Assembly (NCBI GenBank): GCA_016658885.1
Contig: GCA_016658885.1_4807.1
From: a phage
Length of the DNA: 64,000 bases
Reading direction: 5' to 3' (one strand)
The position numbers and the translations under genes are program-made. Positions 6,682 to 32,338 of the stretch are shown in pieces (position 1 is the stretch's first letter; each line of letters opens with the position of its first letter). The notes below the pieces were generated by a model. The model was not told where the DNA came from. It made no database searches and saw only the letters and a list, made by a program, of their open reading frames with translations.

Positions 6682-6863
6682 TGTTGTCTTCTCCAAACTG
6701 CGTGTAATGTTTTCTGGTCGAACTTGGACAGCGTTTCACGCTCCGATGCTTTCAGGAAGCGTGTGCCAAAGAACAACATTCCTTGCGGCGTTTTAACGAG
6801 CGACACGCCTTTGTTACGGTAAAAGCTTACCAAGGCTGATGCGTTGTGGACTTCGGTACTCAT
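6678..6863 (-). CDS. hypothetical protein
   Basis: 61-aa ORF, ATGA overlaps at both ends. Confidence 0.4.
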   Translation of the reverse strand: MSTEVHNASALVSFYRNKGVSLVKTPQGMLFFGTRFLKASERETLSKFDQKTLHAVWRRQQ

Positions 6864-7165
6864 AACTTCCCTCCAAATGTTGCAACACGGATGCCGCGAC
6901 GCTCGAACGTTAACATCGGGTTAAGGCCGTCAGCGCAAGTGATAAACAAATCATCAACGATAAGCTCATATCCGCCAACGTAAAGGATGAACGGGTCATC
7001 GCTATTCTTTAAAAGCATGATGGCTGCAATTCCATTTTTGTTATTGTTAAATCCGTGCACCGTCACTTCACCGACGTTCCTTTCTGTGAACGTTTTAATG
7101 GCACCACAGTTCACGGCTTCTTGCAAAGCGTTCAAAACCTTTTTCTTCATCGCTTCGGTACTCAT
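6860..7165 (-). CDS. hypothetical protein
   Basis: ATG at 7163-7165 with AAGGAGA SD. Confidence 0.5.
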   Translation of the reverse strand: MSTEAMKKKVLNALQEAVNCGAIKTFTERNVGEVTVHGFNNNKNGIAAIMLLKNSDDPFILYVGGYELIVDDLFITCADGLNPMLTFERRGIRVATFGGKL

Positions 7166-7167
7166 AA

Positions 7168-7464
7168 TCAAATCTCCTTAAAAACAAATCCGCTGATAAT
7201 AGATTGATAGTGTGTCACGCCGCGTATTTCTACGACCTTGCAACGATGCGCCTGGCCCTTGTATTCTATCCACCATACTTCCATATCAGGAAGGTTGTTT
7301 GGTTGCGTAATCCATCCGTGAAACAATTCGTATGTCTCACCGACCTTAAACGGCTTGAGCACGCCGTAAGAATCATTTCTCAATACGCAGACGACATCTT
7401 GGCTGTCTTTGTATACAGCATCATGAAACAGCCCGCTTCTGCCAAACCTTTCGTCGTAACTCAT
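7168..7464 (-). CDS. hypothetical protein
   Basis: ATG at 7462-7464 (MSYDERF) with AAAGGAGAA SD; in-frame upstream extension to 7524 starts inside the repeated promoter module. Confidence 0.5.
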   Translation of the reverse strand: MSYDERFGRSGLFHDAVYKDSQDVVCVLRNDSYGVLKPFKVGETYELFHGWITQPNNLPDMEVWWIEYKGQAHRCKVVEIRGVTHYQSIISGFVFKEI

Positions 7465-9891: not shown

Positions 9892-10239
9892 TTACACATT
9901 CTCCACGGGTCGACGAATGAGTTTGCGTAATCCTTCGGGCCAGACCTTCTTAATGACGGCCTTTGCTGGGCTGGATGAAAGCTTCTTCAGCTTCAATAGG
10001 ACACATCCTTCATCATCGTTCGGTTGCACCTGGATAACGACTCGCGCTTGTCGGTCGATGACCATGACATCCCCAACGCGAATGTCTTTCACCAACACGC
10101 CCATCTCCTTCGTGCCGGATACGCCAATCACGTGGTCGCAGCGGACTCGCGGCGGTAGCAATGTTCCGCCTTCAGCCATCTCACGCACACGCTTCTTGAT
10201 CTCTGCGCCATACAGCGTTTCATCTTTAACATGAGCCAT
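9892..10239 (-). CDS. hypothetical protein
   Basis: ATG at 10237-10239 (MAHVKDE) with AGAGG SD. Confidence 0.5.
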   Translation of the reverse strand: MAHVKDETLYGAEIKKRVREMAEGGTLLPPRVRCDHVIGVSGTKEMGVLVKDIRVGDVMVIDRQARVVIQVQPNDDEGCVLLKLKKLSSSPAKAVIKKVWPEGLRKLIRRPVENV

Positions 10240-17807: not shown

Positions 17808-17876
17808 CTGAAGGCATAATTAAGTTATCCCAAACGGGGAATATAAAATAAACTAATTTATTTAAGGACTGTGAAC

Positions 17877-18716
17877 ATGGCCGAAGCAATCAAAGTATTA
17901 TCTAAAGAAGAAAAACAAGCAGCTGCAGCAGAACGTCGTCGCGTGGCTGAAGAAAAACGTCTGGCTAAAAAGAAAGAAGCCGAAGAAAAACGCCAGAAGC
18001 GTGAGCAGGAAAAACAAGCCAAGCGTGAAGAAGCTGCGCTGAAACGCAAGCAGGCTGCTGATGAGAAGGCTCAGAAGCGTGCTGAAGAAGCAGCTAAGAA
18101 AGCTAAAGAGCGTGCAGAAAAGGCTGCTGCTAAGAAAGCAGAGCGTGAAGCTGCTAAAGCAGCGAAAGAAATCGAAAAGGCAAAGGCTAAAGAAGAAGCC
18201 AAGCGCCTGAAAGCTGAACAAGCTGCTGCTAAGAAAGCAGAGCGTGATCAAGCACGTGCTGCAGCGAAGGCCGAAAAAGAGAAGGCCAAAGAAGAAGCTA
18301 AAGCGAAACGCAAGGCAGAGCGTGAAGCTGCTAAGATTGCGGCTAAAGAAGCTGCAGAACAGCAGAAAGAACAGCGTAAGAAAGAAGCTGAAGAACGTCG
18401 CAAAGCCATCGCAGAACGTAAGGCTGCTAAAAAGGCAAACGGTCAGCGTCGTGCAAAAGCAACCCACTTCATCTACACTGGCAATGGCCTGAGCCAGCCG
18501 CAAGAGCATTCCACCCGTGGACGCGTTCTGGCTGCGATCAAAGAAGGCGAAGTTGGCGTGGCGCAGTCTATCGATGAGCTGGGCGAAAAAGTTAAAGATC
18601 AACTGTTTGGCGCTTCCGTTCGCTCCTACCTGAGCAAGCTGGAAGAGATGGGCCACATCGAGTTTGTCGATGTTGAATCCAACGAAGATGCCGAAGACAG
18701 TGATCAAGCGGAATAA
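17877..18716 (+). CDS. Lys/Ala/Glu/Arg-rich low-complexity protein (predicted long single alpha-helix) with C-terminal globular domain
   Basis: About 190 residues composed almost only of K, A, E, R, Q; ATG at 17877 with AAGGA SD; codon choice (GCT/GCA, CGT, GAA, AAA) typical of highly expressed enterobacterial genes; own terminator. Confidence 0.6.
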   Translation: MAEAIKVLSKEEKQAAAAERRRVAEEKRLAKKKEAEEKRQKREQEKQAKREEAALKRKQAADEKAQKRAEEAAKKAKERAEKAAAKKAEREAAKAAKEIEKAKAKEEAKRLKAEQAAAKKAERDQARAAAKAEKEKAKEEAKAKRKAEREAAKIAAKEAAEQQKEQRKKEAEERRKAIAERKAAKKANGQRRAKATHFIYTGNGLSQPQEHSTRGRVLAAIKEGEVGVAQSIDELGEKVKDQLFGASVRSYLSKLEEMGHIEFVDVESNEDAEDSDQAE

Positions 18717-18743: not shown

Positions 18744-18770
18744 GACCCACACTTGTTGTGGGTCTTTTTT
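18744..18770 (+). terminator. rho-independent terminator
   Basis: gacccaca-cttgt-tgtgggtc followed by tttttt. Confidence 0.7.
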
Positions 18771-18848
18771 CATCTGTACTAAATAAAATGACTTGTTGCT
18801 GTAAAATAATTTAGCTATTATACTTCTCATATCACCCACAAAGGACAA

Positions 18849-19844
18849 ATGAACATGAAACAACCTGTAATGATTATCGGCGGCGGATTGGCAGGACTTA
18901 TCACAGCGTGTCACTTCCCGAACTCTATTGTGTACGAAGCAGGGGAGCGAGCGCAACAGCACAAGGCGCTGCTACGCTTTCGCGGCGAAGAAGTAAGCCG
19001 TATTACCGGAATCCCTTTTAAGGCCGTGACAGTTGACAAGGCTGTGTATTTTCGCGGCAACTACTACCACGACCATTGCCCAATCAACCTTGCCAATATG
19101 TATTCCATGAAGGTCACCAATCAATTTGGCAGCCGTTCAATCATGAAGCTTAAGACTGCAACGCGTTATATTGCGCCTGACGACTTTTATGATCAGCTTG
19201 TCGACAAACTGGGTGACCGCATATTCTTTAATACTCCGGTCGATACTCTTTGCGGCTATAGCGAGACGCCAATCATCAACACGTCGCCGCTGCCAGTCAT
19301 GATGAAGCTGGCTGGTATTGATCAGAATCTTGACTTTTCATTCGATAAAGCAAACATTCGCGTTTACCGCTTTAAGATTAAACGTAAGTGTGAACTTTAT
19401 CAAACCATTTACTTTCCTGACTACTCCGTCAGAACTTACCGCGCTTCAATCACTGGCGACACATTGATCATTGAAACAATTCCTTTGGTTAGCGTAAGTG
19501 AAGCCGCAGTTGAAGCCGCTGGCGGCATTACTCGTTACCGTGACATTAAGTTGCGTGCAGAAGTTGACGAAGTGTTGACGGCCTTTGGTCTATCATGGAG
19601 TGACATCGCTCTCGAAGAAGTTGAGAAGGTCGACCAGAAGTATGGCAAGATTGTCGACATTCCGAAAGACTTGCGACACGCTCTACTCCTACAACTTACC
19701 ATGGATTTGAACGTGTTTAGTGTCGGTCGCTTTGCTACCTGGCGAAACATTTTGCTTGATGACGTTGCTCATGACCTTGTTGAAGTTGAAAAACTCATCA
19801 AAGCAAATAACTATCAAAAATTTGCTTATATTGCTAATAAATAA
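18849..19844 (+). CDS. putative FAD/NAD(P)-binding oxidoreductase
   Basis: 331 aa; N-terminal Rossmann dinucleotide motif VMIIGGGLAGL; start may be second ATG at 18855. Confidence 0.45.
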   Translation: MNMKQPVMIIGGGLAGLITACHFPNSIVYEAGERAQQHKALLRFRGEEVSRITGIPFKAVTVDKAVYFRGNYYHDHCPINLANMYSMKVTNQFGSRSIMKLKTATRYIAPDDFYDQLVDKLGDRIFFNTPVDTLCGYSETPIINTSPLPVMMKLAGIDQNLDFSFDKANIRVYRFKIKRKCELYQTIYFPDYSVRTYRASITGDTLIIETIPLVSVSEAAVEAAGGITRYRDIKLRAEVDEVLTAFGLSWSDIALEEVEKVDQKYGKIVDIPKDLRHALLLQLTMDLNVFSVGRFATWRNILLDDVAHDLVEVEKLIKANNYQKFAYIANK

Positions 19845-19889
19845 TTTGCTTTCTGCTTCAATGGGCGTATACTTTAATCATTGAAGCAG
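19845..19889 (+). promoter_or_regulatory. candidate promoter (TTTGCT-N16-TATACT) embedded in an 11-bp-arm palindrome
   Basis: ctgcttcaatg (19853-19863) / cattgaagcag (19879-19889) flank the -10 hexamer; upstream of gene 19911. Confidence 0.4.
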
Positions 19890-19910
19890 AACTCATAAGA
19901 GGAAACGAAA

Positions 19911-20357
19911 ATGAAACGCATCACTGGAATCGCTCTTGCCGCAACTGCTATTCTCGGCACCATGTATATGGAAGCGACTGAAGCCGCTGTCCGTACTTCC
20001 GATTCAATCGCCGTGTATGATTGCGAAGCGATGGACGGTAAAACCGCAGCAACCACTGGCGCAACTATCACGGCTTACATCGGCGTGAACGAGCAAGAAG
20101 GTCTGAATATTCAGATTCAAGGATTCACAGGGAAAGGTGCCAACCGTACTCCGTGGATGCAGCGTTTCACTTTCGTTCAGCCTCGTTCAACTGGCGGCTT
20201 TATCAACTTGATTGGTGAAAACCGTTCTGGTGCAGAAATCTTTACATCAATGAGTTCTAATAATGAACCAAAGAAAAGTTTTCAGTTGCTTTATAACGCA
20301 CAATTCGTTTATCATTGCACCTTCTCTGGTGATCAGCAACTAGTGAATTACCGTTAA
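19911..20357 (+). CDS. predicted secreted protein
   Basis: 148 aa; AAGAGGAAA SD; N-terminal signal-peptide-like MKRITGIALAATAILGTMYMEA. Confidence 0.5.
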   Translation: MKRITGIALAATAILGTMYMEATEAAVRTSDSIAVYDCEAMDGKTAATTGATITAYIGVNEQEGLNIQIQGFTGKGANRTPWMQRFTFVQPRSTGGFINLIGENRSGAEIFTSMSSNNEPKKSFQLLYNAQFVYHCTFSGDQQLVNYR

Positions 20358-20370
20358 TAGGATAATTAAA

Positions 20371-21174
20371 ATGAAAGTTGAATTAATTCGATACACCCAA
20401 GATGCACTTGACCTTTTGCTGGAAACAAAGAACACGCGCATGACTGGTAAGCCCGTCTCTGAGATGACAGAATCAGAGAAGCAAGAGCACTGGCGCTATA
20501 TGCTTGACACCATCAAGTCACCTTTTGACTTTGTGGACTATATCTTTGATATCACTGATGTATCAAAGAACATGACCCATCAGATGGTACGCACACGCAC
20601 AGGCGCATATCAAGAACGCACCAGCCGCGCGCAGGAGTCATCTGCTTTTGATGCGATTCGTCCGAAAGCGTTTGAGTATGACGACCCTGACAGGGTTATC
20701 GGCGAGCGAATCGACGAGCAGCGTTTGAAGTTGGCTAACACATGGGACGACGCCATGGCGACCATTGACGCCCTATACCAAGAACTTCGCGCGGCTGGCG
20801 CAGAGATTCAAGATGCACGTGCCGTTTTGCCTTCTAATATGCAAACTCATATCATGGCAAAGTTCAACTTGCGCACGCTGCAACAGATGGCGTCAAACCG
20901 CTTGTGCACGCGCACACAAGGCGAGTATCAAGAAGTATTTCGCGCAATGGTTGCGGAAGTCCTCAAGGTGCACCCGTGGGCTAATCCTTTACTACAGCCG
21001 CAATGCATCGGTATGGGTAAATGCGCGTTTCCTCGTCACGGCAAAGCCCATTGCCCTTGGTATCGTGATTGGATGGATACTACGGCACAGCAAGAAGAGT
21101 TGCGCATCCAGTTTTGGAATGCGATGCCAATCACCAACAATCCAGTTGCTAAAGATGGAGTATCAAAAGGATGA
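20371..21174 (+). CDS. ThyX-family (flavin-dependent thymidylate synthase-like) protein with variant motif
   Basis: 267 aa; C-terminal DARAVLPSN...NLRTL...NRLCTRTQGEYQEVF resembles ThyX; expected RHR(x7)S signature reads RTRTGAYQERTS. Confidence 0.5.
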   Translation: MKVELIRYTQDALDLLLETKNTRMTGKPVSEMTESEKQEHWRYMLDTIKSPFDFVDYIFDITDVSKNMTHQMVRTRTGAYQERTSRAQESSAFDAIRPKAFEYDDPDRVIGERIDEQRLKLANTWDDAMATIDALYQELRAAGAEIQDARAVLPSNMQTHIMAKFNLRTLQQMASNRLCTRTQGEYQEVFRAMVAEVLKVHPWANPLLQPQCIGMGKCAFPRHGKAHCPWYRDWMDTTAQQEELRIQFWNAMPITNNPVAKDGVSKG

Positions 21175-22043
21175 GCATTAAAAACAGCGAAATCTTAAAC
21201 GTATTCGACCTTGACGGAACGCTGTTTGATGATCGTTGGCGCTTAGACCGCATTAAGGTGGCAGGTCCGTTGTCAGACTATGATGATTATCACAGCGGTA
21301 TTGGTTATGATCAGTTCTATCCTCACATTGCATCAGCAGTAGAGTCGGCATCTCTTCGCGGTGAGGCGGTTGAATATTGGACTGCAAGGCCAGAAAAATA
21401 CAGACAAGTGACTTTTGAACGTCTGGACAATGTTTTTCCTTTTGATGAATTTACAATCAAGATGAGAGACTATGGCGACAAACGTACATCAACTATTATG
21501 AAATCTGCATGGCTATCGCACGCTTTGCGGCACGGCGATTATCGAATCATCAATGTATTCGACGACCGACAAGACGTACTCGCGCGGATGCAAGATGAAG
21601 CATTGTATTATAATTCCGTTGCTCAAAATAAAATCGCTTTTACATTTAATCTTTGCAAGGCAGGTGAAGTGGTGCAACAATTAGCAATTGATCCAAGCGC
21701 AACAGGGCAAGAAGAGACTAAGGCTGTGGAAGTTGAACAATCTCCGGCAACTGCCGCCGATATTCTTGATGCAATGGCAGCAACCTTCCGTGAGCGCAAC
21801 GCTGTCTATGGCGATAACGCTGTGATGGTAGGTCAGGTTATGCAAGTGCTTTTCCCTAATGGCGTGACGTTGAAAACGCCGGAAGACTACCACATGTGGC
21901 ATCTGTTCGAGCTTAAGATTGTCAAGCTTACACGCTTCGCAATCAGCGGCCTGAAGCACGAAGACTCTATACACGATGATGGTGTTTACAGCGCCATGTG
22001 TGAACGTCTTGTTAACACCCATAATATTAATTTCAATAAATAG
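21171..22043 (+). CDS. HAD-superfamily phosphatase-like N-domain fused to unknown C-terminal domain
   Basis: 290 aa; motif I VFDLDGTLFDD, later FDDRQD; ATGA overlap with upstream gene. Confidence 0.45.
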   Translation: MSIKNSEILNVFDLDGTLFDDRWRLDRIKVAGPLSDYDDYHSGIGYDQFYPHIASAVESASLRGEAVEYWTARPEKYRQVTFERLDNVFPFDEFTIKMRDYGDKRTSTIMKSAWLSHALRHGDYRIINVFDDRQDVLARMQDEALYYNSVAQNKIAFTFNLCKAGEVVQQLAIDPSATGQEETKAVEVEQSPATAADILDAMAATFRERNAVYGDNAVMVGQVMQVLFPNGVTLKTPEDYHMWHLFELKIVKLTRFAISGLKHEDSIHDDGVYSAMCERLVNTHNINFNK

Positions 22044-22087
22044 TTTACTTGTGCGTTTCGATGAGTTATATTTATCTCATCGAAACG
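22044..22087 (+). promoter_or_regulatory. candidate promoter (TTTACT-N17-TATATT) embedded in a perfect 12-bp-arm palindrome
   Basis: cgtttcgatgag (22054-22065) / ctcatcgaaacg (22076-22087); related element at 29343-29385. Confidence 0.45.
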
Positions 22088-22108
22088 AAGTCCAAAAAGG
22101 ATAAATAA

Positions 22109-22792
22109 ATGAAAAAAGTAATTGTTGTAACTGGCTGCAATTCCGGTCTTGGTAAATCCATTTTTGACACCCTTGGCGCTTACGGTCATGAAGTTGTCGG
22201 TATTGATTTGGAGAACGGCTATGACATCCGTAACGCGAAACAGATGAAAGAGCTTCTCTCTCAATACGACGTAGAAGGCTTGATCAACTGCGCTGGCGTC
22301 AACTCCAACAACTGGTTCGAAGATGTTAACTACGAAGAGTTCAATCGCGTTATGCACACCAACGCCTTCTCTTTCGTCAACACGACTCAGGCCGCGCTGA
22401 AAAGTCTTATTGACAACAAAGGTTTTGTGATCAACATCGTTTCCAACGCTGCGCATATTCCTATGACGTCCAGCTTGTGTTATAATGCTTCCAAGGCTGC
22501 TGCGCTCATGATTAGCAAGCAGATGGCTCACGAGCTTACGCCTAAATACGGGATCACGGTATTCTCTATTAGTCCTAACAAGCTACGTGGTACTGGCATG
22601 TCCAAACAGATTGAAGATGCTGTTTGCGCGACTCGCGGCTGGACTCCTGAATACGCTGCTGAATACCAGAAAAAGGCACTGATGAATGGATTGGAGACTG
22701 AGCCGCAAGTAATTGCTGACTTCATTCGCCATATCTTAATTACGGGCGCATGGCGCTTTATGTCTGGTACTGATATTCCATTCGGTAAATAA
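22109..22792 (+). CDS. short-chain dehydrogenase/reductase (SDR) family oxidoreductase
   Basis: 227 aa; TGCNSGLG (TGxxxGxG) and YNASK (YxxxK) motifs. Confidence 0.65.
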   Translation: MKKVIVVTGCNSGLGKSIFDTLGAYGHEVVGIDLENGYDIRNAKQMKELLSQYDVEGLINCAGVNSNNWFEDVNYEEFNRVMHTNAFSFVNTTQAALKSLIDNKGFVINIVSNAAHIPMTSSLCYNASKAAALMISKQMAHELTPKYGITVFSISPNKLRGTGMSKQIEDAVCATRGWTPEYAAEYQKKALMNGLETEPQVIADFIRHILITGAWRFMSGTDIPFGK

Positions 22793-22888
22793 ATCACGAA
22801 AATTTGAGGTTGTCACACCCGCTCCTGAAAAGAAACAGGACGAAGACGACACAGTAATTAATCAATAATATTTAATTAAGGAAACAAA

Positions 22889-23440
22889 ATGCCACATTTT
22901 AAAATTGAACAAATCGCCCTGTCAATTCCAGGTGCTCAGCGCGCACAGAATTTCCTGGCTAAAATCGGCCTGACAGAATGGTTCCATGATCACGTTGTTG
23001 CTACTGGTCGCGTATTTGAAGCTGATGTCTTTAAGGGTCAGCGCGGCGATTGCACCAACGAAGCTGACTTGCGCTTCAACTATCAGGCTGGCAACGGCAC
23101 CGATGGCGGCGCTGGTAAGCCTCTTGAGCTTGAAATTCTTGACTATACAAAAGGTTGCAACTGGATTCACGAAAACATCGAATACATCGATGCGCACGAC
23201 AATCAGGTTAGCCATCTTGGTATGCACGTGACTGCCGCTGAACTTGCTGAATGGCGCAAGTTCTTTAAAGAAGAAGGCATTCAGGTTGCGCAGGAAGTTG
23301 TGACCGACTCTCACACCAACCCAAACATTGCTGGTCAGCGTCGTTACAACTATGTAATCTTTGATACTCGTGAAATCATCGGTGTCGACCTTAAATTCAT
23401 CGTACGGTTGAATCAAGACGGTACTCCGTACACTGTATAA
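22889..23440 (+). CDS. hypothetical protein, possible VOC (glyoxalase-like) fold
   Basis: 183 aa; two-half pattern (KIEQIALSIPG..., HLGMHVTAAE..., YVIFDTREIIGVDLKFI) loosely resembling VOC modules. Confidence 0.3.
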   Translation: MPHFKIEQIALSIPGAQRAQNFLAKIGLTEWFHDHVVATGRVFEADVFKGQRGDCTNEADLRFNYQAGNGTDGGAGKPLELEILDYTKGCNWIHENIEYIDAHDNQVSHLGMHVTAAELAEWRKFFKEEGIQVAQEVVTDSHTNPNIAGQRRYNYVIFDTREIIGVDLKFIVRLNQDGTPYTV

Positions 23441-23456
23441 CGAATCGTGAATCTGT

Positions 23457-23481
23457 GGCCGTCCTAATGGGCGGCCTTTTT
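23457..23481 (+). terminator. rho-independent terminator
   Basis: ggccgtcc-taat-gggcggcc followed by ttttt, just before RBS of exonuclease gene. Confidence 0.55.
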
Positions 23482-23494
23482 GTAGGAGGCCAAT

Positions 23495-24037
23495 GTGTTA
23501 TTTCTCCCTTATGACTTCGAAACAACCGGATTAACCGTGCACCCGAAAGCGCCGCTTGGGATGCAGCCGCGCCCTATTGAATTTGCAGGTCTGTTGACAG
23601 ACGGCAAAGAGATTCTTGAAACTTTTGAGTTCATAATTAATCCTGAAATTGTGATTGAAGAAATCATCACAAAGATTACCGGATTAACAAATGAAGACCT
23701 TGAGTGCAATCCACCATTCATCAATTTCGTTCCGCAGCTAAAAGAAATATTCAAGAAGACGGATGCAACTATCGCGCACAACCATGCATTTGATAAAAAC
23801 ATTCTTGATTATGCACTACAGCGCGAAGGACTTACACTTGATGATGTTAATTTCCCAGAAATAAACATCTGTACAGTTGAGCAAACCTTGCCTATTTTTG
23901 GTCGAAGAGTTAAGCTTCAAGAGCTGTATGAATTATATTTCGGAAAATATGAACAGAAGCACCGTGCATTAGACGACGTAATATTACTGCACAAAGTCTG
24001 CCAACAAATTGGCGTATATGACATCTGGAGTAAATAA
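23495..24037 (+). CDS. DnaQ-like (DEDDh) 3'-5' exonuclease, likely proofreading subunit
   Basis: 180 aa, GTG start after TAGGAGG SD; Exo I DFETTGL, Exo II HNHAFD, Exo III HRALDD. Confidence 0.7.
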   Translation: MLFLPYDFETTGLTVHPKAPLGMQPRPIEFAGLLTDGKEILETFEFIINPEIVIEEIITKITGLTNEDLECNPPFINFVPQLKEIFKKTDATIAHNHAFDKNILDYALQREGLTLDDVNFPEINICTVEQTLPIFGRRVKLQELYELYFGKYEQKHRALDDVILLHKVCQQIGVYDIWSK

Positions 24038-24498
24038 TGCTTGACATAGACTATTTGCACGAGCATTTCGATTATTTTGATGGCCAGCTTATAGTCAAAA
24101 AGAAGCCCTATAAATATAGAACTCAGGTTGGTGAACCAATAGGCTATCTTCATGGAGATAGATTGAGATGTAATCTTCACGGAAGGAAATGGTTTGTTCA
24201 CCAGTTGATATTCTTCTATCATCATGGCTATTTGCCAGCTTATGGAATCGACCATTGGGATAGGAATCCACTAAATAACAGAATCGAAAACTTAAGACCT
24301 TGTGACGCATCATCAAATGCTCAGAATATCGAAAGGTCTGATGAAGTAGGAATAATCTTGACAATCAGCGGCACTTGGGAAGCGTCCATATCAATTAAAG
24401 GCAAAAAGAAGTACCTTGGAACTTTCAAGGAAAAGCACGAAGCCATTGAAGCGAGAATACGTGCAGAAAAAGACCACTACACCCACTACTGGAGGTAA
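24037..24498 (+). mobile_element. free-standing HNH endonuclease with AP2-like DNA-binding domain (homing endonuclease type)
   Basis: 153 aa; HHGYLPAYGIDHWDRNPLNNRIENLRPCDASSNAQN; inserted between exonuclease and polymerase genes. Confidence 0.65.
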
Positions 24499-24499
24499 C

Positions 24500-27400
24500 A
24501 TGTCATTTCCACAACTAAGAGTTAGAAGCGGATATTCATTTAAAGAAGTTTACGGAAGGATGCCTGAAATTTGCTCGCGTCTAATTCAACTTAATTGTCA
24601 CGCGGCAGCGATAGTTGATAACAATACTTGGTGTCACGTTCGCTGGGAAAAGGAATGCCAGAAAAATGATATTAAGCCTATGTTTGGAATGGAGATTCCA
24701 ATCATCGACCCTGATGCGGACCCGAAAAAGGGATTCAAACCGAAGGCTTGGATATTGGCCCTTGACCTGAAATCCTTTTACAATGCGACCACGCTTGCAA
24801 CACAGCGCGGCGGATTGACCCGTGCAGAGTTCGGGGCGCTCGATGGCGTCGTTAAATTCTGTGGCGGGGCCGTGGAGTTGCTGCGGCCAGAGGACTACGA
24901 TTATATAGACGTCAACCCATCATCGTTCCTTTTGGCCAAGCGCCAGGTATTGGCTCACCGCAGCAACGGAAGGCCGCTGGTTTTAACCGGATACAATCAC
25001 ATGCCTTCACCTGAGCACGTTGACTTTGCTTATGCGTGGGAAGTTCGCGACACGGTTAAGCCGCACTGCATCGTTGACGCGGAAGACTTGCGCAAACAGC
25101 TTAAAGGAATCTTAACCGAAGATGAGTTGAATCAAGCAACTGCCAATGCGGTTGACATTGCAAATGGAATCGTTGGGCTTGACCTGAAGCTGCGCAAGGC
25201 GCCGATTATCCACCTTGCTGGTGACATGGTAAAACTTGCTCGTGAGGGTATGGAGTACCGCCTTAAGGCAGGTCACATCAAAGAATGGACTCAGGAATAT
25301 GAGGACCGATTCAACGAAGAGATTCATCAGATTCAGCTAAAAGATTTCGACTCATACTTTCTTGTTGTAGCGGACCTTGTACGATTTGCAAAAACAAAAA
25401 TGCTCGTCGGACCTGCTCGCGGCTCATCGGCTGGTTCACTGGTTTGTTATTGCCTCGGCATCACGGAAGTTGACCCAATCCCGTATAAGCTGCTATTTGC
25501 CCGATTCATCGACGTAAGCCGCGCCGACCTCCCTGATATTGATATTGACTTTGAGGACACCAAACGCTATATGGTGTTTGATTACCTTAAAGAAAAATAC
25601 GGCGAAATGAACGTTGCAAAGCTTGGCAACATCAACACGCTTAAGGCCAACTCAGTAATGGCTCAGGTTGGTAAGAAGTTCAACATTGGATATCACGAAA
25701 CGGCCAACATTAAAAACGCATTGCTTGAATACTCATCTGGTGACGCCCGTTATGGTCACGGTCTGGAGGATACCTTTGCAACAACGACCACGGGCCAAGA
25801 GTTTGTGGCTAAATATCCCGATGCCGCGCGTTGCATGGGTGACCTTGAGATTCACCCGTCCCACACAGGTGTTCACGCAGCGGGAATTATTGTGTGTAAT
25901 GACCCAATCTCTGATTACTGTACGGTAACAGCGGAAGGGATTGCACAAATTGATAAGCCTGACAGCGAATACCTTAACCTTTTGAAGCTTGATGCGCTGG
26001 GCCTTCGTACCCTCGGCATCATTTCTGATACTGGCGTGATAGATGCTGAAACGCTGTACGGCATAAAGCTTGATGATCAAAGCGTCCTTGACATCCTTAA
26101 CGAAAACAAGATGTCAGGCATCTTCCAGTTTGAAGGCGATGCTGTACGCTCAGTGACCAACTTTGTGCACGTTGATAACTTTAACAAAATCGATAACCTG
26201 ACAGCACTTGGTCGACCTGGCCCGTTGTCATCCGGTATGGCCCAGAAATACATTGAACGCGCGGCAGGGCGTGCGCCGATTGAATACGACGTGCCGCAGC
26301 TTGAGCCGTACTTAAAAGAGACTTACGGCGTGTTTCTTTACCAAGAGCAAATCATGGCCGTGGTTAAAGAGATTGGTTCATTCGACTGGGCGAAAACATC
26401 CGCTGTACGCAAAGCGATGTCAGGCCGTAAGGGTGAAGAATACTTTAACAAGCTTGGCGAGGACTTTGTTGCAGGCGCAATCAATAACGGCGTACCGGAA
26501 GCGGACGCAAGAAAACTTTGGCAAGCGATGGCAACGTTCGGGTCATGGGGCTTTAACAAGTCACACTCCGTGTCATACGCGGTCGTGACCTACTGGACCT
26601 TGTGGCTTAAGCGACACTACCCGTTGGAATTTGCCGCAGCCTGCTTACGCGCTGCTAAGGACGAAGACCAGACGATTGCGATACTACGTGAACTTGCGAA
26701 GGAAGGCGTGGATTATGTGCCAATCGACCCTGATCACTCTTCAATGAACTGGACCATCGCGAACGGAAAGCTAATCGGCGGCATCATGAACGCGAAAGGA
26801 TACGGAATGGTGAAGGCAATGAAGTATATCGAAGCGCGTGAAGCCGGAACCTTAACGCAAAAGCAAAAGGACGCATTGGCCAATGCTGAAGTCAAATACG
26901 GCGACCTTACAGAGATGCACACAAAGTTCGGCTGGGCGTATAATGACCCGTATCTGATTGGCGTGACTTCCGGCGCTTCAATACGCCAGATGAAGGAAGT
27001 CGGTGATGACGAGCGTGCAATAGTAATCGGCAAGTTGACAAAGAAAGTGCTTGCAGACGAGAACGAAGCGACACGCATCCGTAAACGACTTGAGCGCGGC
27101 ATCTATACAAAGCACGGCAAGCTTAAAAAAGGTCTTCAAGCTGATGGCCGCTACGCCGAGTTTGACCAGTACGGGAACAAGCTTGAGACTCAGTTCATCG
27201 ACCTTATGTGCAAAGACGACTCGACAGACTCGCCAATGCGCTTCAGGATTCGTCCAGAAAAGTTCCAGAAGTACGGGAAATACATTGCTGAAAACGTCGG
27301 TAACGGCGCATTCTTCCTGATGAAAGGTCGTAAGCTTGAAGGCATTGACATGTTCATCGTCGACGTTATCAAACAGGTGTATCCAGATGGCAACAAATAA
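24500..27400 (+). CDS. DNA polymerase III alpha-like (DnaE family) replicative polymerase
   Basis: 966 aa from ATG at 24500 (GGAGG SD); PHP-like N-terminus; ARGSSAGSLVCYCLGITEVDPIPYKLLFARFID matches conserved DnaE segment. Confidence 0.7.
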   Translation: MSFPQLRVRSGYSFKEVYGRMPEICSRLIQLNCHAAAIVDNNTWCHVRWEKECQKNDIKPMFGMEIPIIDPDADPKKGFKPKAWILALDLKSFYNATTLATQRGGLTRAEFGALDGVVKFCGGAVELLRPEDYDYIDVNPSSFLLAKRQVLAHRSNGRPLVLTGYNHMPSPEHVDFAYAWEVRDTVKPHCIVDAEDLRKQLKGILTEDELNQATANAVDIANGIVGLDLKLRKAPIIHLAGDMVKLAREGMEYRLKAGHIKEWTQEYEDRFNEEIHQIQLKDFDSYFLVVADLVRFAKTKMLVGPARGSSAGSLVCYCLGITEVDPIPYKLLFARFIDVSRADLPDIDIDFEDTKRYMVFDYLKEKYGEMNVAKLGNINTLKANSVMAQVGKKFNIGYHETANIKNALLEYSSGDARYGHGLEDTFATTTTGQEFVAKYPDAARCMGDLEIHPSHTGVHAAGIIVCNDPISDYCTVTAEGIAQIDKPDSEYLNLLKLDALGLRTLGIISDTGVIDAETLYGIKLDDQSVLDILNENKMSGIFQFEGDAVRSVTNFVHVDNFNKIDNLTALGRPGPLSSGMAQKYIERAAGRAPIEYDVPQLEPYLKETYGVFLYQEQIMAVVKEIGSFDWAKTSAVRKAMSGRKGEEYFNKLGEDFVAGAINNGVPEADARKLWQAMATFGSWGFNKSHSVSYAVVTYWTLWLKRHYPLEFAAACLRAAKDEDQTIAILRELAKEGVDYVPIDPDHSSMNWTIANGKLIGGIMNAKGYGMVKAMKYIEAREAGTLTQKQKDALANAEVKYGDLTEMHTKFGWAYNDPYLIGVTSGASIRQMKEVGDDERAIVIGKLTKKVLADENEATRIRKRLERGIYTKHGKLKKGLQADGRYAEFDQYGNKLETQFIDLMCKDDSTDSPMRFRIRPEKFQKYGKYIAENVGNGAFFLMKGRKLEGIDMFIVDVIKQVYPDGNK

Positions 27401-31714: not shown

Positions 31715-32338
31715 ATGAACCAGATTTATGCAAACATTCGCCAGTGGGCTTCTGACCGTAACATCATCCAAGGTTGCGACCTTAAGGACCAATACCCGAA
31801 GCTTATCAGCGAGTTTGGGGAGTTAACCGATCACGTTGATCAACTCCATGACCTTGTGTTCTTCGACCCTGAAATTGGATATACAGAGCAGGCCATCTGT
31901 GACTTGCAAGCTGCAATCAAGGACGACATTGGCGATTGTCTTGTTGTGTTGACCATCCTGGCGGCGCAAAACGGTACTGAAATCGAAAACATTAATGGCG
32001 GCGGTTGTGCTGATAAAGGCGCTCACCCTCATTCATTCATCCTTCGCCTGGCAAAGACTCTCGGACGGCTTGGTGATGCTATTGCTAAGAATCAGACCAT
32101 GGATATTGACGTCACCATCATGGCCGCAGTCGATTACCTTTCCGGCGTAGCTCATGATTATGGCCTTCGCTTATCCGACTGTGCGCAAGCGGCCTACGAA
32201 GACATCAAGGACCGCAAAGGTGTCATGTACAACGGAACGTTCATCAAATCTACTGATCCAGCTTATGAGCACTCCTGCAAAATGGTAAAGAAGCTGGAAC
32301 TTGAAGACCGTGTGATCAGAGAAGTTACAGGACAATAA
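31715..32338 (+). CDS. putative MazG-like nucleoside triphosphate pyrophosphohydrolase
   Basis: 207 aa; EFGELTDHV and DDIGDCLVVLTILA resemble MazG EExxE/D motifs; tentative. Confidence 0.4.
   Translation: MNQIYANIRQWASDRNIIQGCDLKDQYPKLISEFGELTDHVDQLHDLVFFDPEIGYTEQAICDLQAAIKDDIGDCLVVLTILAAQNGTEIENINGGGCADKGAHPHSFILRLAKTLGRLGDAIAKNQTMDIDVTIMAAVDYLSGVAHDYGLRLSDCAQAAYEDIKDRKGVMYNGTFIKSTDPAYEHSCKMVKKLELEDRVIREVTGQ

Follow-up and report, generated by a model that had tools for sequence, protein, structure and literature searches.

Candidate genes for pyrimidine hypermodification in the replication module of a Wifcevirus: a flavoprotein, a ThyX without its motif histidine and a phosphatase fusion

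Introduction

The hypermodification pathways of phages M6, ViI, SP10, PhiW-14 and PaMx11 use a ThyA-family dUMP hydroxymethylase, a 5-hydroxymethyldeoxyuridine (5-hmdU) DNA kinase (5-HMUDK) and aGPT-Pplase (Lee et al., PMC8989533), and beyond that paper our literature search found none linking ThyX to phage hypermodification. In Bacillus phage SP-15, the modified base is 5-(4',5'-dihydroxypentyl)uracil, which, according to papers cited in PMC5977210, is labelled from ribose and made as the nucleoside triphosphate. Phage nucleoside diphosphate (NDP)-sugar mutases and HAD sugar phosphatases are found in the DNA glycosylation clusters of RB69, DLP3 and the Pootjesviridae (PMC13326640). Here, we analysed a 64,000-nucleotide stretch of phage DNA (contig GCA_016658885.1_4807.1 of GenBank assembly GCA_016658885.1; the whole stretch is called the window below), in which six consecutive genes at 18849-23440, designated A to F, form a candidate pathway for pyrimidine hypermodification.

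The window is Wifcevirus DNA. Wifcevirus phages are myoviruses of about 68 kb and distant kin of the Pseudomonas PB1-like phages (Pbunavirus), and the Wifcevirus members Bas98-101 of the BASEL collection resist all restriction-modification systems tested except EcoP1_I, with no known mechanism (PMC11990801). DNA of Pbunavirus F8 resists enzymes with TG in their site, as reported in a 2025 preprint on END nucleases (Yee et al., PMC12191111). In the same work, liquid chromatography-mass spectrometry showed thymidine-derived nucleosides of 362 Da in F8 and 390 Da in Pbunavirus 14-1, with about a quarter of T replaced; these were read as a tetrose sugar-alcohol derivative (F8) and a cyclised aldopentose derivative (14-1), and F8 and 14-1 have no known modification genes, none having been assigned by the authors (PMC12191111). 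For therapy of Pseudomonas aeruginosa infections, Pbunavirus phages are among the most used, yet the modification of their DNA came to light as late as 2025.

Results

A terminator-bounded gene set conserved upstream of DnaQ and DnaE

The 4.6-kb region, in this E. coli myovirus, shares 92-96% DNA identity with about 29 Wifcevirus phages of Escherichia and Shigella, including WFH, WFC, ECML-117, FEC19, Mansfield and Bas98-101. An earlier note, made from the letters of the window alone, had described six consecutive plus-strand open reading frames (ORFs) upstream of a DnaQ-like exonuclease and a DnaE polymerase. All six ORFs are present, and both replication genes are confirmed, with an HNH ORF lying between the two; the six genes, the hairpins that flank them and the two replication genes are on the plus strand. 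The DnaQ-like 3'-5' exonuclease is encoded at 23495-24037 (RNase_T, 1e-21), and the DnaE-type DNA polymerase III alpha subunit at 24416-27400 (identified from the ORF and the Mansfield annotation). Two strong terminator-like hairpins enclose exactly the six genes. The 5' boundary (18744-18772, hairpin 18744-18764) has an 8-bp stem with five GC pairs and a TTTTTT tail; it ends the gene upstream, and the annotations of Mansfield and of Pbunavirus LMA2 have a terminator at the equivalent place. The 3' boundary after F (23457-23486, hairpin 23457-23476) has an 8-bp stem with seven GC pairs followed by a T run, and Mansfield again carries an annotated terminator at the equivalent place.

When IMG/VR was scanned with an alignment of gene A, 80 loci were obtained, and the 42 with at least 7 kb downstream of A were used to count gene order. 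ThyX is present in all 42, the C-terminal domain of D in 41, and DnaQ together with DnaE in 41, and all 42 are collinear, which shows that the arrangement is not due to chance. The common order is A, ThyX, D, optionally E and F, and then DnaQ and DnaE. Hence the co-occurrence across relatives that the earlier note had wanted checked is borne out, with A, ThyX and D together and collinear in all related loci examined and E and F as a coupled optional pair.

Searching GenBank by tblastn, we found A in 362 phage records. Among these are all Pbunavirus, Wifcevirus, PB1-like phages of Serratia, Pantoea, Xanthomonas and Burkholderia, as well as eight records from Rhizobium phages, about 205 kb in length. 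The order in Pbunavirus LMA2, F8 and 14-1 is gp65 (A), five small ORFs, gp59 (ThyX), gp58, gp57 (D), the exonuclease and the polymerase, and E and F are absent from these three phages. In the unrelated Rhizobium phages RHph_TM30 and TM3_3_6 (Kleczkowskaviridae), A, ThyX and a protein with HAD and the C-terminal domain of D lie within 7 kb of each other; this set adjoins a dUTPase and ribonucleotide reductase, and there is no DnaE module of this kind. RHph_TM30 is among the phages with a family A polymerase like that of the T-hypermodified phages YerA41 and SP-15 (PMC12686479). In RefSeq, its A homologue is called 'polysaccharide deacetylase' and its D homologue 'phosphoheptose isomerase', and both names look wrong. 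In 40-kb phages of Ralstonia and Cronobacter, A adjoins a ThyX without the motif histidine, upstream of DnaQ-DnaE.

A similar grouping is found in actinophages. Microbacterium phage TinyMiny encodes in a row an oxidoreductase with an FAD-Rossmann start, an NT5C-like HAD protein, an SDR, an F homologue, a protein corresponding to the C-terminal domain of D, and DnaE; further downstream are a GT2 glycosyltransferase gene and a gene for a long ThyX-like protein whose motif reads RQR. Mycobacterium phage Visconti and Gordonia phage Lambo carry an oxidoreductase of the TinyMiny family, an NT5C-type HAD protein (which passes the Pfam cut-off in Visconti), a methyltransferase, an SDR, DnaE and an RQR-type ThyX. 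We also compared the oxidoreductases TinyMiny gp55, Visconti gp63 and Lambo gp67 with A: only the Rossmann start and a C-terminal GRYGxWxKG are alike, and the hhalign probability is 13-46%, so that we regard them as apparent analogues of A and not as proven homologues.

Gene C is a divergent ThyX

Gene C (20371-21174, 267 amino acids) had been noted as a ThyX-family protein with an altered motif, and both parts of this description proved correct. C matches Pfam Thy1 with 6e-30 and 104.9 bits, well past the gathering cut-off of 24.8, and scores 81.4 bits against the NCBIfam equivalog TIGR02170, which is under the cut-off of 87.9. The ThyX motif RHR-x7-S-x-R is replaced by RTR...T.R: gene C reads RTRTGAYQERTSR, in which His has become Thr and Ser has become Thr. 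C was aligned with the ThyX proteins of T. maritima (TM0449) and M. tuberculosis (Rv2754c), and in T. maritima numbering it keeps the counterparts of the dUMP-binding residues Gln75, Arg78, Arg80, Glu86, Arg90, Arg147 and Arg174. The changed positions are His79 (Thr), Ser88 (Thr) and Tyr91 (Ala), and the Tyr91 position is Ala or Val across the linked ThyX clade.

To see how general the change is, we used 75 distinct ThyX sequences from phages carrying the gene set. The residue between the motif arginines is Thr in 56, Ser in 12, Asn in 3, Gln in 2, Pro in 1 and His in 1, and thus the motif histidine is lost in 74 of 75. As a comparison, three readable ThyX proteins from outside the gene set, those of Clostridium phage CP26F, T. 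maritima and M. tuberculosis, all have RHR; in that of Bacillus phage Mgbh1, the motif pattern had no match whatever. That the histidine is lost almost throughout, and that the equivalog score is under the cut-off, suggests a changed enzyme. In addition, 37 of the 75 linked sequences are extended at the C-terminus and have conserved cysteines there (RLC ... C-x5-C-AFPR ... C). The extension, which in gene C lies within the last 60 residues, occurs among others in Wifcevirus, Pbunavirus and actinophages, and from its sequence the cysteines may form a metal or iron-sulfur site not present in canonical ThyX.

One further locus, IMGVR_UViG_3300045988_142235, carries a ThyX 86% identical to that of the window, with 45% identity for A, 37% for the C-terminal domain of D and 60% for DnaQ, and it has neither E nor F. 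These identities indicate a mosaic exchange of the ThyX gene between lineages.

Gene A has the fold of a flavoenzyme

Gene A (18849-19844, 331 amino acids) matches PHROG 4828, a function-unknown family, end to end. It has no Pfam or NCBIfam family, no Pfam match was obtained even at an E-value of 10, including GLF (PF03275), and sequence and profile searches of the Protein Data Bank (PDB) gave no useful match. Its family has 1915 detectable members, all from phage-like or phage-sized contigs and all without Pfam domains. In a 36-member alignment, GxGxxG, Glu30, an HKALLRFR motif and a C-terminal GRFATWRNxLLDD motif are invariant, as are many Arg and Lys residues. The Rossmann FAD/NAD-binding protein claimed earlier is upheld by the motif IIGGGLAGL and by an FAD-enzyme fold in the AlphaFold model, which is confident (pLDDT 86, pTM 0.83). 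Foldseek of this model against the PDB returned UDP-galactopyranose mutases (UGMs) on top (E 1e-10, TM 0.67), followed by amine oxidases, and UGM was likewise the nearest match in the HHpred search of the Mansfield annotators. A has the FAD Rossmann motif and the overall three-domain fold of UGMs and stands outside the GLF family by sequence. Judged from the predicted structure, A is an FAD enzyme of the UGM, protoporphyrinogen oxidase and amine oxidase class, of which UGM is the nearest solved relative.

Gene D joins a HAD phosphatase to a conserved helical domain

Gene D (21171-22043, 290 amino acids) is a HAD-phosphatase fusion, as had been proposed from its DLDGT (DxDxT) motif. The N-terminal domain (21171-21695) contains DLDGT, TARP, K111 and DDRxD, and residues 11-142 match HAD_PNKP with 33 bits (cut-off 27.6). 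No P-loop kinase domain was found in D, the remainder being a four-helix domain, and the database name 'polynucleotide kinase' is therefore misleading. The C-terminal domain (21750-22043; delimited from alignments and an AlphaFold2 model) follows a variable linker, and the model places four helices at residues 195-284. Its invariant residues are Tyr213, Phe228-Pro229, Lys252, Arg255, His263, Asp265, Ser266, Asp269 and Tyr273. Ralstonia phage PY059YO380 and Microbacterium phage TinyMiny (gp59) encode this domain as a small protein of its own, which argues that it is the conserved element and that the HAD fusion is secondary.

For the C-terminal domain, Pfam, NCBIfam and PHROGs gave no informative family, and PDB sequence and profile searches gave nothing useful. 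It was also considered as a MazG-like pyrophosphatase, and hhalign against the MazG-like proteins of the window and of actinophages was negative. Assignment to DUF1599, DUF3310 or DUF6378 was likewise rejected: just one relative has a weak DUF6378 match, and hhalign gives no link to DUF3310. In Cronobacter phage vB_CsaP_Ss1, the place of D is taken by a HAD domain fused to a true DUF3310 (6710-7390 of the extracted locus, 4e-9), which is analogous to D in that a phosphatase is joined to a small helical domain; for DUF3310, no function is on record in the literature. Between F8 and 14-1, A is 97% identical, ThyX 94% and DnaQ 98%, and D just 81%, with gp58, gp60, gp61 and gp63 at 78-83%. Judging by these identities, the side chain that F8 and 14-1 each make may depend on D or on one of the small ORFs.

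Genes E and F form an optional pair, and gene B is confined to Wifcevirus

Gene E (22109-22792, 227 amino acids; phrog_3142) is a classical, FabG-like short-chain dehydrogenase/reductase (SDR), in line with the earlier assignment: it has TGCNSGLG (TGxxxGxG) and YNASK (YxxxK) and matches adh_short with 1e-31 and 110 bits. Its closest matches in NCBIfam and the PDB are generic FabG-like reductases and dehydrogenases, and an Asp after strand beta-2 suggests a preference for NAD.

For gene F (22889-23440, 183 amino acids), a possible VOC fold had been put forward. Its relatives lend some weight to this: the F family has about 690 homologues, all in phages, a few of which have a precomputed PF13669 (Glyoxalase_4) match, and the Mansfield record gives InterPro IPR029068. 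F itself stays under the cut-off for Glyoxalase_4 (13.5 bits, cut-off 27), Pfam, NCBIfam and PHROGs gave no informative family, and a profile search of PDB sequences gave nothing useful. Q8, E82, H109, H142 and N144 are invariant, and in the alignment only Q8, E82 and H109 are at ligand-like positions. F probably has the VOC (glyoxalase/dioxygenase) fold on these alignments.

Among the 42 IMG/VR loci, E and F are both present in 30 and both absent in 11, and F occurs alone in 1; the F homologue of TinyMiny adjoins an SDR too. The lineages without the pair are not one group, which shows that it was gained or lost as a unit more than once. Since Pbunavirus lacks both genes, the modifications reported to date must be made without E and F. 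Some Wifcevirus phages have an extra small ORF of 56-71 amino acids between E and F (Mansfield 9948-10163 and Bas99 581-751, positions in the extracted loci); in the window the gap is 96 nt and this ORF is missing.

Gene B (19911-20357, 148 amino acids) encodes a protein with a hydrophobic, signal-peptide-like N-terminus and has no family match in Pfam, NCBIfam or PHROGs. By tblastn it was seen only in Wifcevirus loci, and it was therefore rejected as a pathway member. B is a Wifcevirus-only insertion outside the conserved set and probably does not belong to the pathway.

Restriction sites and other modification genes

The window contains 12 EcoRI, 5 EcoRV, 4 EcoKI and 86 EcoP1 sites. The possibility that the Wifcevirus phages resist EcoRI, EcoRV and EcoKI for want of sites was rejected, because all three kinds of site are present. 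As for other sites, GATC is strongly depleted (99 versus 261 expected), BsaI, BamHI and KpnI sites are absent, XbaI has one, and HindIII (57 versus 26 expected) and SalI (33 versus 12 expected) are enriched.

The complete annotation of Bas99 (96% identical) shows no glycosyltransferase, kinase, dioxygenase or known modification gene, and the mid-sized ORFs of the window were scanned too, with only part of the small hypothetical ORFs covered. Within the same scope, which again takes in only part of the small hypothetical ORFs, there is no ThyA-type hydroxymethylase, 5-HMUDK or aGPT-Pplase. The only metabolic enzyme besides the cluster is a MazG-like pyrophosphatase (phrog_1992, 31715-32338), which adjoins an ATP-dependent DNA ligase and may belong functionally with the cluster.

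A candidate pathway to a C5-modified deoxyuridine

The terminator-bounded operon in the replication module can be read as a pyrimidine hypermodification pathway that places a sugar or polyol group on C5 of deoxyuridine, and we put the chances of this at about even. The simplest reading that covers all data is that A, the His-less ThyX and D are the core, with E and F as an optional pair for tailoring. We infer every catalytic step, every substrate and the existence of a modification in Wifcevirus. This last point, together with a ThyX that could be ordinary and a gene B outside the set, leaves the earlier proposal of a non-canonical nucleotide pathway only partly sustained, its supports being the co-occurrence of the genes and the hypermodified thymidine of Pbunavirus.

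The product would be a counterpart of the 362-Da and 390-Da thymidine derivatives of F8 and 14-1. C would bind dUMP and activate C5 as ThyX does, and A would supply or process a sugar-derived carbon unit, given that the enzyme nearest to it in fold works through a flavin-N5 iminium at a carbon of the sugar. The HAD domain of D would take a phosphate off the side chain or the nucleotide, with the helical domain as an obligatory partner. Where present, E (by oxidation or reduction) and F (by isomerase, lyase or dioxygenase-type chemistry) would tailor the side chain, and in that case the final base of Wifcevirus would differ from that of Pbunavirus. The DnaE polymerase would accept or tolerate the modified base, which would shield the DNA from restriction and account for the resistance to EcoRI, EcoRV and EcoKI despite their sites.

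In the ThyX reaction, a carbon carried as flavin-N5 iminium is passed to C5 of dUMP and subsequently reduced; in the UGM reaction, the flavin-N5 iminium involves C1 of the sugar. By analogy with these established mechanisms, the pathway chemistry is plausible. A more specific proposal, which we think unlikely though worth stating, is that ThyX and A act jointly: C5 of dUMP would attack the flavin-N5 iminium formed at C1 of a pentose, a hexose or a phosphate of either, and reduction would give a C-C-linked 5-(polyhydroxyalkyl)-dUMP. The HAD domain of D would then remove the terminal sugar phosphate, E and F would deoxygenate or rearrange the chain towards an SP-15-like dihydroxypentyluracil, and the DnaE/DnaQ polymerase would incorporate the product. 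The masses of 362 Da (F8) and 390 Da (14-1) fit the tetrahydroxypentyl- and C-hexosyl-deoxyuridines (dU) expected from such a reaction. By arithmetic, 5-(2,3,4,5-tetrahydroxypentyl)-dU is C14H22N2O9, 362 Da, the same as the erythritol ether of 5-hmdU, and C-hexosyl-dU is C15H22N2O10, 390 Da, the same as the pentosyl ether of 5-hmdU; since the formulae are identical, the published masses cannot tell a C-C from an ether linkage.

Several observations weigh against a C5 hypermodification pathway. C keeps all residues for dUMP binding and could simply make dTMP, and the fold of A is nearly as close to protoporphyrinogen oxidase as to UGM. The only relatives with a known modification, the Pbunavirus phages, lack E and F, and three quarters of their T is canonical. 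The TG pattern in F8 points to a sequence-reading enzyme at the DNA level, for which the pathway does not account, and Pfam and NCBIfam scans revealed no recognisable DNA-binding or base-flipping domain in the cluster proteins. There is also no glycosyltransferase or nucleotidyltransferase in the Bas99 annotation. F8 is cut by EcoRI (PMC12191111), whereas Wifcevirus is EcoRI-resistant (PMC11990801), so that the pattern of any modification in Wifcevirus must differ. Finally, much of the co-occurrence could be vertical inheritance of one replication module.

Alternative explanations

The main alternative is ordinary nucleotide supply, with C a normal thymidylate synthase, D a salvage nucleotidase or a 3'-phosphatase of host-DNA breakdown, and A, E and F passengers that travel with the replication module by descent; the resistance of Wifcevirus would then come from another anti-restriction protein. 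We consider this a real possibility, if on the doubtful side. C does match Thy1 with its dUMP-binding residues in place, the phosphatase of D is closest to PNKP 3'-phosphatases and its actinophage counterparts are NT5C-type deoxynucleotidases, and the public records speak of a thymidylate synthase, a polynucleotide kinase/phosphatase and a FabG-like reductase. DnaE and DnaQ are co-inherited with the set, and the synteny may thus be vertical. However, the motif histidine missing from 74 of the 75 linked ThyX proteins and the low TIGR02170 score suggest a changed enzyme, and ThyX makes dTMP without the help of another flavoprotein, a reductase or a VOC enzyme. A, ThyX and D are found together again in Rhizobium phages with a different polymerase, the strict coupling of E and F, present or absent as one, speaks for function and not drift, and nucleotide supply leaves no candidate genes for the Pbunavirus modification or the Wifcevirus resistance.

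The enzymes might instead act on DNA after replication, in which case A would be a flavoenzyme on DNA bases (compare the FAD-dependent lyase gp47 of PaMx11), D would take a phosphate off a group attached to a base within the polymer, and the ThyX-like protein would just supply a precursor. The TG context and the replacement of about 25% of T in F8 suggest a step at the DNA level, and T followed by G makes up 26% of all T in the window; PNKP phosphatases act on polynucleotides, flavoenzymes on hypermodified DNA bases are known (PMC8989533), and A has its many invariant Arg and Lys residues. Yet no 5-hmdU precursor is reported in F8 or 14-1, the Bas99 annotation has neither a 5-HMUDK kinase nor an aGPT-Pplase transferase, no DNA-binding domain is detected by Pfam or NCBIfam in A, C, D, E or F, and a C-C or ether bond at the thymine methyl is not makeable from canonical T by these enzyme classes as understood, which together make such a route improbable. 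We hold it very improbable that the genes make or destroy a small molecule unrelated to DNA bases, for instance by supplying a pterin or flavin cofactor for ThyX, or by an anti-defence activity that breaks down or detoxifies a nucleotide signal or chain terminator of the host. Mixtures of SDR, VOC, HAD and flavoproteins are typical of catabolic and cofactor pathways, E best matches generic reductases and dehydrogenases, and A, F and the C-terminal domain of D are assignable to no family; against this stand the fixed place between helicase and polymerase genes, the constant linkage to a dUMP-binding enzyme, HAD domains of nucleotide and polynucleotide phosphatase families, and gene families found only in phages, with no bacterial pathway homologues.

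Flanking genes

The HNH ORF between DnaQ and DnaE (24037-24498; HNH_3, phrog_99) is a homing endonuclease and is absent from Mansfield. The program-made start of the DnaE ORF (TTG, 24416) overlaps it, and the true start is probably the ATG near 24497 (MSFPQLRV). Upstream of the cluster, 17871-18716 encodes a 281-amino-acid protein rich in Lys, Ala and Glu (phrog_4765), whose relatives are labelled 'TolA-like' or 'cell wall associated'; in PB1-like phages it is always directly upstream of gene A, with a terminator between.

Discussion

The analysis yields a short testable list of three core genes and two optional tailoring genes, and well over a thousand phage sequences, ranging from Proteobacteria to Actinobacteria, carry the set. 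Wifcevirus can now be grown on a K-12 derivative without cryptic prophages and with restored O-antigen, the BASEL isolation host. If the cluster is a hypermodification pathway, it would account for the restriction resistance of Wifcevirus by a route based on ThyX and a UGM-fold flavoprotein and not on ThyA-type hydroxymethylases, kinases and transferases, and it would predict uncultivated phages with modified DNA, targets of modification-dependent nucleases such as END nucleases. If, in addition, ThyX and A act jointly to form a carbon-carbon link, ThyX-type chemistry would have a second use that does not depend on folate, and a very large lineage of phages would have a wholly new way to hypermodify its DNA.

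The cluster belongs to none of the characterised modification systems, and its likeness to each of them is partial. As in M6, ViI, SP10, PhiW-14 and PaMx11, the proposed pathway would modify a carbon attached at C5, replace T in part and be encoded by genes clustered near replication, and the PaMx11 pathway includes an FAD enzyme, as does the window cluster; unlike in those phages, the enzyme for C5 comes from the unrelated ThyX family and is partnered by a flavoprotein with the UGM fold. Compared with the canonical ThyX proteins TM0449 and Rv2754c, C has in common the Thy1 fold and the dUMP-binding Arg, Gln and Glu residues, and differs at the motif histidine, Ser88 and Tyr91. In SP-15, C5 of uracil bears a polyol-type chain of five carbons, and a very divergent Thy1-family protein (gp130) adjoins a FabG-like SDR (gp129), and there is a PNKP-type HAD protein (gp135) as well (PMC12686479). 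The 362-Da nucleoside of F8, taken as tetrahydroxypentyl-dU, equals by arithmetic the SP-15 deoxynucleoside plus two oxygens. When 46 kb of SP-15 was searched with the profiles of A, E, F and the ThyX clade, no match was found, the only hit being a weak match of the D profile to gp135 (E 1e-6), and SP-15, unlike the window, uses a family A polymerase. The SP-15 link is thus best taken as an apparent analogy and not as a demonstrated relationship.

With the glycosylation clusters of RB69, DLP3 and the Pootjesviridae, the cluster has in common a flavin mutase, insofar as UGM is the nearest fold of A, and a HAD phosphatase. A differs from the solved UGMs in being about 40-140 residues shorter, with 11-17% identity and no GLF match in Pfam. 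Unlike in DNA glycosylation systems (glucosyl-hmC of T4, base J, arabinosyl-5hoC), no glycosyltransferase is annotated in Bas99, and unlike in sugar-modification clusters, no sugar kinase or nucleotidyltransferase is annotated there with it. Pbunavirus F8 and 14-1 have in common with the window gene A (about 40% identity), a ThyX of the RTR type (about 50%) and D, which precede DnaQ-DnaE in the order seen in the window, and a phenotype of virion DNA protected from restriction. E, F and B are missing from Pbunavirus, and F8 is EcoRI-sensitive where Wifcevirus is resistant. The six genes are the best available candidates for making the modified thymidine of the Pseudomonas relatives.

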